This document shows, piece by piece, positions 3,001 to 6,000 of a DNA stretch of 64,000 nucleotides. This DNA comes from an uncultured Parabacteroides sp. (GTDB lineage Bacteria; Bacteroidota; Bacteroidia; Bacteroidales; Tannerellaceae). Each line of letters begins with the position of its first letter. The first letter of the stretch is position 1. Location of the stretch: contig CAKUZF010000008.1 in the NCBI GenBank assembly GCA_934718155.1, positions 4,761-68,760 on the forward strand, given 5' to 3'. The position numbers were made by a program.

Positions 3001-6000
3001 TCCATGTACCACTGTTCAGAACATATTGCACACCTGCTGAAATCTTTTCGTTGGGATTGTAGTTTATACCACCTACTACCTCCATTCGATTAGACTTCAC
3101 TTTTTCTTCTTCCTGATAGCCTATTTCATGAACGGCATCCACTAAACTCAATTGCTGATTGGCTTTCATGTCGATTTGTTGACGTTTTTGTATCAAATGA
3201 GAAGAGGCAAATATATCCCAGGCATTGCGCCTAAAGTTAACAGAAGCAAATTCTTCGGCAGACCAGTGTTCGGAACATTTGGAACCCGCATATAAGGTAC
3301 CGCTGAAGCCTTCTCCTTGTGCTTTCTCGGTGATTATTTGGATAACGGCTCCTACAGTAGCATCATATTTTGCACCTGGCATGGTATTTACTTTTATGCT
3401 TTTTATCTCAGACGGCATCAAACGATCCAGCTCTTTCAGATCTTGTACCTGCCTGTTGTTTATATAAATAACTGGAGTTCCTTTGCCAAATACATTGAAT
3501 TTACCGTCTTGGCTATTTACAAATGGTAATTGCGCAATTATATCTGCAGTTTTAGGAAGTGTCTGTAATATAGTTCCTTTTACATTTGCAATCATTTCAC
3601 CGCTTTTCTGCTCATAAAGTTTCTGTCGAGCAACCACCACAACCTCATTCAGTGTTAATGGTTCCAGTCTAATTCGAAGAGGAGATGGTTCTAATTCTAC
3701 ATACTTTGTCTTGTAGCCGACATATGAGACACGTAGATACATTCCCTTTGTATTTTTCGTCGTGAAATTAAATTTCCCGTTTTCATCACTTGTACAACCT
3801 GCAATAATCGCGCTGTCCGCAGATTGGCATAAGACAATATTGGCAAATGCGATATTATGTCCATTACTATCTAACACTGTACCTGTAATGGATTGCGCCC
3901 AACTGAACACCGGAATGAGCACAAGAATACAAACTAAATACTTTTTCATAAAATTAAGTATTAATATTCTATTTATAATGTTCATAATAATATTCCAAAC
4001 ATTTATCTAATAAACCTGGTGCTTTTTGAAGGCATTGACAAAGATTGAATTTACCATTATGATACAGATTTCTCTCATTATACCACGCACATTTTCCGTT
4101 GCAAATAGGCATAAAGAAACATTTTTTACACACAGGGTCATTATACCATGCGCAGCCTTGATGATATCTATAATACAATGTTTTATTTACAATCTCAGAC
4201 TGGCCAATATAGCCTATTATTTTCGATTTATCCGAAACATCGTTCCAACATTTATAAATTTCACCTGTTGGGCCAATAATGTATGAACTCACACATAAAG
4301 CGCAGCATGTCTTCGCTATTCTTAATGTTGGATATATATCTCCATTTAGAATACCTCTAGAATACAAATCATAAAGCATATTAGCAGTTTCCCAGCGTCC
4401 AAATGCAGGCTCTACTAAATTTGTCATATCTTCATTTTCCAATCTGATTATTCCTGGATATACAATTATATTTTTTTCAGCATATTTGCCATGTATATCA
4501 TTATAGATTTGAAAAAAATCATCAACATTGTTTTTATCTATATTTACCCTAATATGAAGTTCTGTATTAGGAAGTTTATTGACAACATTATCTATATTAT
4601 TGAGAATATTGTCATATGTCGGTGCATTGTTTGATTTTAAAGATCTTAAACTATCATGTCTTTCCTTTACACCATCAAGTGTTATTTGAATAGAATCTAA
4701 TGGATATTTTTTAAATAGTTCAATTGCGTTATTATTAAACAAATAACCATTGGTAATAATTGAATGTTTCAATATCTTTGCTGTAACTTCAGTTGCAATT
4801 CGATTTAATATTTTCTCTATAACAGGTATTGCTAATAGAGGTTCCCCTCCATACCATGTTAACGTCAAAGATTTTGCATTTTCAAATCCTTTTATAAAAG
4901 AAATAAGATTATCTATAGTTTGATCACTCATTTTGCTAGCACGCTTTTCTTTTTCAAAACAATAAGGGCAATTGAAGTTACAATTAAGAGTAGGAACTAG
5001 AACTAAATTTAATTTTGATTTATCATGTTGAACAGATTGAGTTACAAATTGGCTTTTAATAACAAAATCATCATCTTCACTCTCAGTACAAATGAATCCT
5101 TCCTGTTCAAGTTTCATCTGAATATCTTCCGGTAATTGATTTTGTATTTCATTAGTCTTATTTTTTATTTTTTCATTGAGAAAATTATATAAATCTTCTG
5201 ACAACTCCAAGAAAGAATTGTTTTTTGATGAATATGCTAAACATATAGACTTTGAAGTTTTAAAAAAATAGGCAAATCTTGAAATTACTTTTTTTTCCAT
5301 CTAATAATACTTTTATAAAGCACCTATAGGGATTCCCTATAGGTGTTGTTATTAATAACAAATGTTAATCAGTCATATTATTCACATGAGTTGGTTGTTT
5401 ATCTGTGGTTTCTTTCTTATTTTCATTACTGAACCAACAGTTACAATCAGTACAGCTGGAAGCAATTGCAACACTTTGTGAATTAATACCTCCTTTAATA
5501 TTAACAGCTTCTTCTTCAGTGAGTGAAGTTGGTTTTATAATTGCATTTATTTTCATCATAGCAGTATTATTAATGAAATGGATTTGCTGATTTGGTTACA
5601 ATGACAAGATTGTTCTTTTCTTCATTTTTATTACTGATAATACAATCACATGTACACTCTGTAGCAACCAAACCGAATGTAGGATTTAAACCACCTTTTA
5701 CGTCAAGCGCTTCTTCTATACTAAGCGTTTCTTTTGTTTTTAAAACATTAATTTCCATTTTATCTCATTTTATTGATTTTGCCTACTCTATAAACTTTTC
5801 GGCTTTCGTTCCTTTTATACAGTTTGGTCTGTGTGATTATTGTCGACATTAATCTTTATTTATTGTTTGATATTAGCCTATTTCGATCACTCCTTCGGCG
5901 TACCACGCATCAGTTTGTATTTGTATACTATAAGTACCTAGGGCAAAAACTGCAAATACCGTATTCAATAACGAAGAGTATTCTTCAAGACTTTCGTTTG

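Follow-up and report, generated by a model that had tools for sequence, protein, structure and literature searches.

A predicted radical-SAM peptide cassette in a Parabacteroides contig, with paired double-glycine-leader precursors and a conserved CxC-x3-NxN core unit

The window analyzed here, a stretch of 64,000 nucleotides from an uncultured Parabacteroides sp. (GenBank assembly GCA_934718155.1, contig CAKUZF010000008.1, positions 4,761 to 68,760 of the forward strand), carries at its beginning a minus-strand cassette that appears to direct the synthesis and export of peptides that are made by ribosomes and modified after translation (RiPPs). Read along that strand, the order is a TPR protein, a secreted protein of 119 amino acids (aa), a structured 5' element, two small open reading frames (ORFs) designated pep2 and pep1, a hairpin, a radical S-adenosylmethionine (rSAM)/SPASM maturase, an outer-membrane beta-barrel protein and a peptidase-C39 ABC transporter (PCAT). 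The two small ORFs had been picked out by a sequence-only reading of the window as paralogous precursors. We recovered them at the same coordinates with translations identical letter for letter, and their description as RiPP precursors with PCAT-type double-glycine leaders, adjoining an rSAM/SPASM maturase and a C39-ABC exporter, was borne out.

The precursor pep2 (5570..5758, minus strand, 62 aa) and the precursor pep1 (5365..5559, minus strand, 64 aa as called) lie back to back, with 10 nt between the two ORFs. The leader of pep2 is MEINVLKTKETLSIEEALDVKGG and its core LNPTFGLVATE-CTCDC-IIS-NKN-EEK, whereas the leader of pep1 is (M)MKINAIIKPTSLTEEEAVNIKGG and its core INSQSVAIASS-CTDCNC-WFS-NEN-KKE, each core being followed by a variable tail. 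The true length of pep1 is probably 63 aa, with translation starting at the second ATG as in its homologues. The cysteines stand at C35, C37 and C39 in pep2 (CxCxC) and at C36, C39 and C41 in pep1 (CxxCxC). Direct reading of the translations places Leu at -12, Glu at -8 and Ile or Val at -4 in both leaders, which end in KGG, exactly the C39 cleavage consensus that had been proposed for them; the features of a PCAT-type leader (Gly-Gly end, hydrophobic residues at -4, -7 and -12, acidic residue at -8) are thus present in both peptides, and the pattern is kept across 35 homologues. Cleavage after Gly-Gly would leave cores of about 39-40 aa, for which monoisotopic masses of 4276.10 Da (pep2) and 4459.94 Da (pep1) are calculated in the unmodified state. 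The two peptides are 39% identical over 49 residues (BLASTP, E 2e-11) and are therefore paralogues. NCBIfam and Pfam scans placed neither of them in a meaningful family. Among 16 aligned relatives, 11 match TIGR04149 ("rSAM-modified RiPP", GG_sam_targ_CFB) at E<=10 (best E 6e-6), and the homologue from Niabella carries an NCBI name derived from this model.

Both ORFs behave as genes. Copies of pep2 at 100% identity were found in 7 public contigs, and public assemblies contain identical or near-identical sequences annotated as proteins (15 clusters); a relative of pep1 at >=90% identity, WP_234209244.1 of Phocaeicola vulgatus, is present on about 280 contigs. Compared with orthologues, the ratio of nonsynonymous to synonymous differences (pN/pS) is about 0.1-0.2 in leader and core, and 0.36-0.39 over the whole length of pep2. 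Relative to the orthologous loci L005 and L060 (related loci carry L numbers throughout), leader and core of pep2 show 8-9 synonymous and 3-6 nonsynonymous differences, in spite of a roughly fourfold excess of nonsynonymous sites. Judged by these copies and substitutions, pep1 and pep2 are real genes whose leader and core appear to be under purifying selection. The C-terminal tails (5365-5420 and 5570-5620), which are rich in Lys, Pro and Thr, differ from those of L005 and L060 almost exclusively by nonsynonymous changes (7-8 versus 0 synonymous for pep2, 4 versus 0-1 for pep1), which suggests relaxed or diversifying selection, the counts being small.

Directly downstream, the gene of the maturase (3969..5300, minus strand) encodes a 443-aa radical SAM/SPASM protein with an N-terminal domain resembling a RiPP recognition element (RRE) and with matches to Pfam Radical_SAM and Fer4_12. 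Its motifs are C107xxxC111xxC114 and, in the SPASM domain, C332...G346xxxxC351, C391xxC394x5C400xxxC404 and C421xC423; across 40 homologues sharing 41-91% identity, the rSAM and SPASM cysteines show little or no variation. All the hallmarks of an rSAM/SPASM enzyme with RRE were found, namely the CxxxCxxC motif, a SPASM domain of 7-8 cysteines and an N-terminal leader-recognition fold. In the AlphaFold2 (AF2) model (pLDDT 93.6) the N-terminus forms a beta-sheet followed by three helices, consistent with a leader-recognition, RRE-like element.

To which maturases this enzyme is related was examined by profile, structure and active-site comparison. The best NCBIfam match is TIGR04463 (211 bits for a cutoff of 525), followed by Clo7bot (TIGR04334, 191/600), CefB (NF038107, 180/600), PapB (112/340), the SCIFF maturase (82/425), QhpD (61/453), TIGR04148 (53/300) and RumMC (48/720). 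The PapB and SCIFF matches are significant although below threshold. The DynA hidden Markov model (HMM) scores 86 bits, and HMMs of cyclophane-forming maturases also match. When the family profile was compared with the PDB, CteB (5WGG/5WHY) was by far the best match (E 3e-29), with SkfB at E 3.7e-8, and a Foldseek search with the AF2 model returned CteB first, then TigE and then anSME. Six positions, those of the "catalytic-site proximity" set of Precord et al., were mapped through an alignment with CteB that recovered all six CteB residues; they are F115, Y150, I182, T207, W352 and N353 in the maturase. This profile is identical to that of CteB (F,F,T,S,H,Q) at 1/6 positions and similar at about 4/6, and identical to that of StsB (Y,T,I,S,K,L) at 1/6. 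By RumMC score, SkfB E-value and StsB proximity profile, the enzyme belongs to no known sactisynthase family. Overall, these comparisons place it closer to ranthisynthases (CteB by structure, PapB and SCIFF by HMM) than to the named sactisynthases.

A genome scan with the rSAM as query yielded 55 related loci, almost all in Bacteroidales (Hallella, Segatella, Phocaeicola, Bacteroides, Parabacteroides, Proteiniphilum, Muribaculaceae) and also in Niabella. One or two small, Cys-containing ORFs with double-glycine leaders lie directly upstream of the rSAM gene in about 45 of the 55, and about 20 loci, with rSAM identities as low as 37%, keep the order precursor-rSAM-outer-membrane protein (OMP)-PCAT. 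Carriers of the cassette include P. vulgatus and P. coprocola (rSAM WP_234209246.1 or a relative of it). The divergent A/B precursor pair is confined to the clade nearest the window (the window itself, L001, L002, L005, L014 and L060), where both types are kept across genera; of the related loci, most have a single precursor and a few carry two that are nearly identical.

The feature that best characterizes the cores emerged from two sets of homologues, 25 unique pep2-like sequences anchored on CxCxC and 10 unique pep1-like sequences. In the former, C0, C2, C4 and N8 are invariant (25/25) and N10 is present in 24/25, whereas position 5 can be I, L, W, F or Y and all positions beyond 11 vary. 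In the latter, C0, C3, C5, W6, N9, E10 and N11 are invariant (10/10). The core unit common to pep1 and pep2 can thus be written CxC-x3-NxN plus one further Cys upstream, and in the wider family it recurs as CxC-x(2-4)-NxN. NxN follows 21 of 26 CxC units, which are not phylogenetically independent; by chance, about 0.05 per unit would be expected with the 13% Asn content of the cores taken into account. An Asn lies within 4 residues of CxC in all 26. Several Prevotellaceae and rumen loci (L015, L016, L017, L019) repeat the unit two to three times per core with Gly-rich linkers in between, each repeat having two Cys and two Asn without exception, as in CDCTGQNSN...CECPWSNEN...CSCIFANTN. A more distant clade (L020-L022, L030, L032) has CCxxNxxCNxN cores, and Muribaculaceae loci have long Cys-rich cores. 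From these alignments, Asn appears to be as strongly constrained as Cys, and for this reason the SN(E/K)N motif, which the sequence-only reading had listed among shared features of the cores, is not incidental: it is real, and is the key conserved feature, which had been given too little weight.

We consider it moderately probable that pep1 and pep2 are RiPP precursors whose cysteines are stapled to asparagines through thioethers by the CteB-like maturase, before the PCAT removes the double-glycine leader and exports the cores. The leader would dock on the RRE-like N-terminal domain of the maturase, which would abstract hydrogen from the acceptor residues and join these to Cys thiols, each thioether being accompanied by a mass change of -2 Da. 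The acceptors would most likely be the two invariant Asn, giving by analogy a tight and probably nested hairpin that pairs C39 with N43 and C37 with N45 in pep2, and C41 with N45 and C39 with N47 in pep1, whereas the third Cys would join a non-conserved partner. Sulfur could be attached to the Asn alpha-carbon (a sactionine, as in StsA and BlaA) or to the beta-carbon (a ranthionine, as in NxxcA and freyrasin). The PCAT would then cut after Gly-Gly and export the cores, and the barrel protein would carry them across the outer membrane. The least certain part of this proposal is the role of the product, which may act among gut Bacteroidales as a narrow-spectrum bacteriocin or as a signal and be spread by mobile elements.

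Several observations weigh against this interpretation. Every one of its chemical steps is inferred from sequence. The maturase scores below the curated cutoffs of all named maturase families; its second and third best folds, TigE and anSME, belong to enzymes of non-thioether chemistry; and its proximity profile, somewhat nearer to CteB than to StsB, matches neither cleanly and is not diagnostic. On the peptide side, pep1 and pep2 themselves do not match TIGR04149 at E<=1, TIGR01847 is not significant either, the invariant N-terminal Cys has no conserved mirrored partner, and some subfamilies have a single Asn after CxCxC (CICKCGTNSA) or SNC. With a charge of -1 to -2, the cores are predicted to be mildly anionic, unlike many pore-forming bacteriocins, and the cluster contains no membrane-fusion protein (MFP). 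Finally, the rSAM gene of L056, whose locus is 100% identical to the window in other respects, is broken into ORFs of 280 and 152 aa (10459-11798), and the system is therefore dispensable.

Downstream of the maturase lie the two transport genes. The barrel protein (1673..3949, minus strand; 758 aa from the second Met, the ORF extending to 3985) combines an N-terminal CarboxypepD_reg domain (Pfam CarbopepD_reg_2) with OMP_b-brl_3 (1.9e-54) and is presumed to be the outer-membrane passage for the peptide. The C39 transporter that the leaders had implied is present in the same cluster, cut by the start of the window: the translation of 1..1659 (minus strand) gives its N-terminal 553 aa, with the catalytic Cys in DSMSCGVACL. 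The full-length protein of L056, 100% identical over these 553 aa, has 729 aa and the domains Peptidase_C39, ABC_membrane and ABC_tran. The small ORFs located beyond the PCAT in L056 matched no family.

Upstream of the precursors lie two further genes. The 119-aa protein (5873..6232, minus strand) has a signal peptide and belongs to no Pfam or NCBIfam family; it is kept together with the TPR protein in L005, L060, L038 and L039 and is a candidate immunity or accessory protein. No recognizable immunity gene was found in the cluster by Pfam and NCBIfam scans. The TPR protein (6456..8258, minus strand, 600 aa) gives weak matches to TPR_1, TPR_2 and TPR_8; it starts with a signal of lipoprotein type (LFAC) and further shows a single predicted transmembrane segment, at about residues 355-378, and a long coiled coil. 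Its score against the BT3442 family (69.9 bits) is far short of the cutoff. It is also found upstream of the precursors in L002, L005, L038, L039 and L060 and is a candidate sensor or regulator of the cluster. A LuxR-type helix-turn-helix (HTH) at its C-terminus was considered and could not be confirmed, there being no Pfam or PDB sequence match.

Two RNA elements frame the precursor genes. Directly upstream of pep2 is a conserved structured 5' element (5774..5850, minus strand) composed of two short hairpins and a GAGUAGG box, related to the Rfam DUF805/DUF805b clan. The DUF805b match (5780-5812) is borderline, at 35.8 bits for a gathering score of 35.6, and sub-threshold matches (21-35 bits) occur at the equivalent place in L005, L060, L001 and L002. 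The element is better preserved between Phocaeicola-type and Hallella loci than the coding sequence is. By our covariance model, made from six loci, it precedes ORFs with double-glycine leaders in 16 further loci. The model detected it 10-50 nt upstream of such an ORF in ten loci that are more distant and whose cores are quite different (L003 1936-2009, L004 5647-5722, L009 1-80, L023 5601-5676, L024 315-390, L025 5519-5599, L030 2654-2727, L039 5508-5581, L043 5528-5600 and L046 5562-5645); the model also gave an eleventh match, in L041, which is left out of these ten. In helix 2, compensatory changes are seen at 3 of the 4 pairs and 93% of cells are paired as compared to 9-43% in slid controls, in an alignment that was fitted to the model and hence is biased towards structure. 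The hypothesis of an RNA structure for the 5' element is supported by these compensatory changes. A GTCGAC palindrome is often found just 5' of the DUF805-like element. Our literature search found no description of what DUF805 motifs do, and their occurrence ahead of double-glycine-leader precursor genes may give this orphan Rfam motif a biological context.

The second element, a perfect stem-loop of 11 bp, lies in the gap from the stop of pep1 to the start of the rSAM gene (5321..5345, minus strand; minimum free energy -19.9 kcal/mol, z -3.55) and was the sole terminator-like match in the scan. A long perfect hairpin occupies the equivalent position in 19/19 related loci examined, its structure being kept while its sequence is unrelated. 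A hairpin after a precursor gene is a classic means of holding precursor mRNA above enzyme mRNA, and the present one is probably an attenuator, a partial terminator or an mRNA stabilizer that sets the precursor-to-enzyme ratio.

The cassette block is conspicuous by its base composition, 26-42% GC (about 30% in the precursor region) as compared to 50-57% in the flanking chromosome, and forms a low-GC island of about 10.8 kb (window 1-8500; L056 7200-18000). In L060 (1-9000; 17000-20189) a 92-95% identical cassette stands beside TraM, DUF4138, a TraG-like coupling protein, ParB and DNA methylases. Its low GC content and this copy next to conjugation genes lead us to regard the cassette as horizontally mobile cargo. 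The flanks of the island in L056, searched for att-like direct repeats, gave nothing convincing, and the cluster was not found in PLSDB plasmids. L056 also carries a 57-nt piece of the OMP gene (17063-17119) duplicated about 4 kb downstream. Together with the split rSAM gene, this duplication hints that the island is decaying or being rearranged in some strains. Elsewhere in the window we noted a cobalamin riboswitch (21981-22184, plus strand, 85.5 bits) upstream of a 682-aa ORF (22355-24403) and a small RNA of the Bacteroidetes FopS family (54955-55028, minus strand, 76.4 bits) that fits a Bacteroidales host.

Other explanations of the locus have to be weighed against thioether stapling for export as an antagonistic peptide. 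The same chemistry could yield a signalling peptide, an autoinducer sensed by the TPR protein, with the two paralogues acting as alternative signals instead of a synergistic pair. The retention of the TPR membrane protein upstream in several loci, the tight regulation to which the structured 5' RNA and the attenuator-like hairpin point, the anionic cores and the lack of a recognizable immunity gene all speak for such a function. A regulatory role of the TPR protein is, however, unproven in that neither Pfam nor PDB search revealed an HTH, its gene is not found in most loci, and carriage on mobile elements together with fast-evolving tails fits antagonism at least equally well, so that we regard signalling as possible, if doubtful.

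Alternatively, the rSAM enzyme could install another modification, such as an aromatic-Asn C-C crosslink of the dynobactin or darobactin kind, an epimerization or a cyclopropyl group, leaving the cysteines for a disulfide, a metal or recognition. The DynA and cyclophane-type HMM matches, the invariant Trp after the last Cys of pep1-like peptides, the proximity profile that is not diagnostic and the ranking of TigE (a cyclopropyl synthase) and anSME among the best folds are in keeping with this. On the other hand, Cys and Asn are the sole family-wide invariants, and the best sequence and fold match, CteB, is a thioether synthase. The target motif of anSME is CxPxR, and this motif is not visible in either core. 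An aromatic-Asn crosslink was rejected as the family-wide modification because 13/25 pep2-like peptides have Ile or Leu directly behind the last Cys. Overall, a chemistry other than thioether formation seems unlikely to us.

Export of unmodified peptides that resemble class II bacteriocins, as bacteroidetocins do, with processing by the PCAT only and an rSAM acting elsewhere, appears very improbable. It is true that a double-glycine leader and a PCAT suffice for class II bacteriocins, that Bacteroidales make such peptides (PMC10352776) and that L056 has a broken rSAM gene beside intact precursors, but the rSAM gene adjoins Cys-rich double-glycine-leader ORFs in most of the 55 loci and in many genera, the maturase has an RRE-like, putatively leader-binding domain and the precursors of relatives match TIGR04149. 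As to chance reading frames in AT-rich intergenic DNA, which the GC content of about 30% would favor by allowing long spurious ORFs, they are effectively refuted by the paralogy of the two peptides, the 35 unique homologues with invariant Cys and Asn, the mostly synonymous substitutions in leader and core and the conserved synteny.

Thioether stapling of Cys to Asn thus being the interpretation we retain, its interest lies first in the hosts. Bacteroidales dominate the human gut, and their modified bacteriocins remain uncharacterized according to a 2023 survey (PMC10352776). The cassette is compact (two precursors, one enzyme, two transport genes) and mobile, and it is widespread, since hundreds of public Phocaeicola contigs carry relatives at >=90% identity; the structure and activity of its product would therefore bear on strain competition in the gut and on the horizontal transfer of competitive traits. 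Secondly, the conserved and sometimes tandem CxC-x3-NxN unit is a testable prediction which, if true, extends the logic of thioether RiPPs to hairpin-arranged Asn acceptors. We tentatively raise the possibility, without favoring it, that CxC-x3-NxN is a new crosslink module made of nested Cys-Asn thioethers (possibly at the beta-carbon) and installed by an unnamed CteB-like family, which would make this the first radical-SAM RiPP class of defined chemistry from gut Bacteroidota, carried on conjugative elements and under DUF805-type RNA control.

Among known systems, the arrangement of the core resembles that of StsA, in which Cys2, Cys4 and Cys6 are linked to Gly15, Gly13 and Gly11, and of BlaA, in which Cys13 and Cys15 are linked to Gly22 and Gly20, all as nested hairpin thioethers (PMC10288494). 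Like pep1 and pep2, these peptides have alternating Cys, a short loop and alternating acceptors, GxGxG or GxG in their case and NxN here. The statement of the sequence-only reading that the Cys spacing is tighter than in any sactipeptide is outdated in view of CxCxC...GxGxG in StsA and CxC in BlaA, and the different crosslink topology that this spacing had suggested to it is not required: since both peptides provide a direct precedent, CxCxC needs no exotic topology. The acceptors of StsA and BlaA are Gly, with alpha-carbon linkage only, whereas the conserved residues here are Asn. StsB is MftC-like and works with a separate RRE protein, whereas the present maturase is CteB-like with a fused RRE-like domain. 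Moreover, the StsA and BlaA systems are actinobacterial and without a PCAT/OMP cassette, and the third acceptor position is not conserved here.

Ranthipeptides (NxxcA/NxxcB, freyrasin/PapB and the SCIFF peptide thermocellin/CteB) resemble the present system by their rSAM/SPASM thioether synthase with RRE. In freyrasin the spacing is Cys-X3-Asp, and the ring size then equals that of the last Cys-X3-Asn of pep1 and pep2. Its rings are sequential with acidic acceptors, whereas nested rings with Asn acceptors are proposed here. In NxxcA the Asn lies upstream of the Cys and forms a single ring, whereas here it lies downstream. Ranthipeptide hosts are Firmicutes, and the present maturase is far short of the PapB and SCIFF cutoffs. 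It is to be noted that Asn is a proven acceptor, since NxxcA contains a Cys-Asn C-beta thioether, and that freyrasin contains Cys-Asp C-beta thioethers (PMC8326336); PapB acts on Cys/Asp and Cys/Glu pairs (PMC9413430).

Thuricin CD, to which the two peptides had been likened, likewise has two tandem precursor genes, three Cys per core and thioether-forming rSAM enzymes, the thioethers being a proposal in the present case. Its Cys spacing is wider, and its acceptors are not known to be Asn. The analogy is weakened by the requirement of thuricin CD, a Gram-positive system, for two rSAM enzymes acting together (PMC12093266), whereas this cluster has one rSAM, hence no dedicated enzyme per peptide, and most relatives have a single precursor. 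Synergy between pep1 and pep2 is possible, although it is not implied by the genetics.

Within the Bacteroidota, no paper characterizing the product of the cassette was found in our literature search, the nearest being the bioinformatic survey of Fernandez-Cantos et al. 2023, which describes Bacteroidales RiPP clusters as prevalent in human metagenomes and highlights a cluster of P. vulgatus (PMC10352776). Like the present cassette, those clusters comprise an rSAM, a precursor with a GG motif, a PCAT, an OMP and sometimes a TPR protein. For BGC2, that survey gives a tandem of PCAT and MFP with a separate OMP, whereas the order here is rSAM-OMP-PCAT without MFP. The TIGR04149/TIGR04148 system is an in-silico Bacteroidetes family with double-glycine leaders, of which no product described as chemically characterized was found in the literature search; relatives of pep1 and pep2 match its precursor model, whereas the partner enzyme here is not TIGR04148. 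We conclude that the system is an uncharacterized variant within the thioether (sacti/ranthi) rSAM RiPPs, with leaders related to those of the in-silico family TIGR04149.

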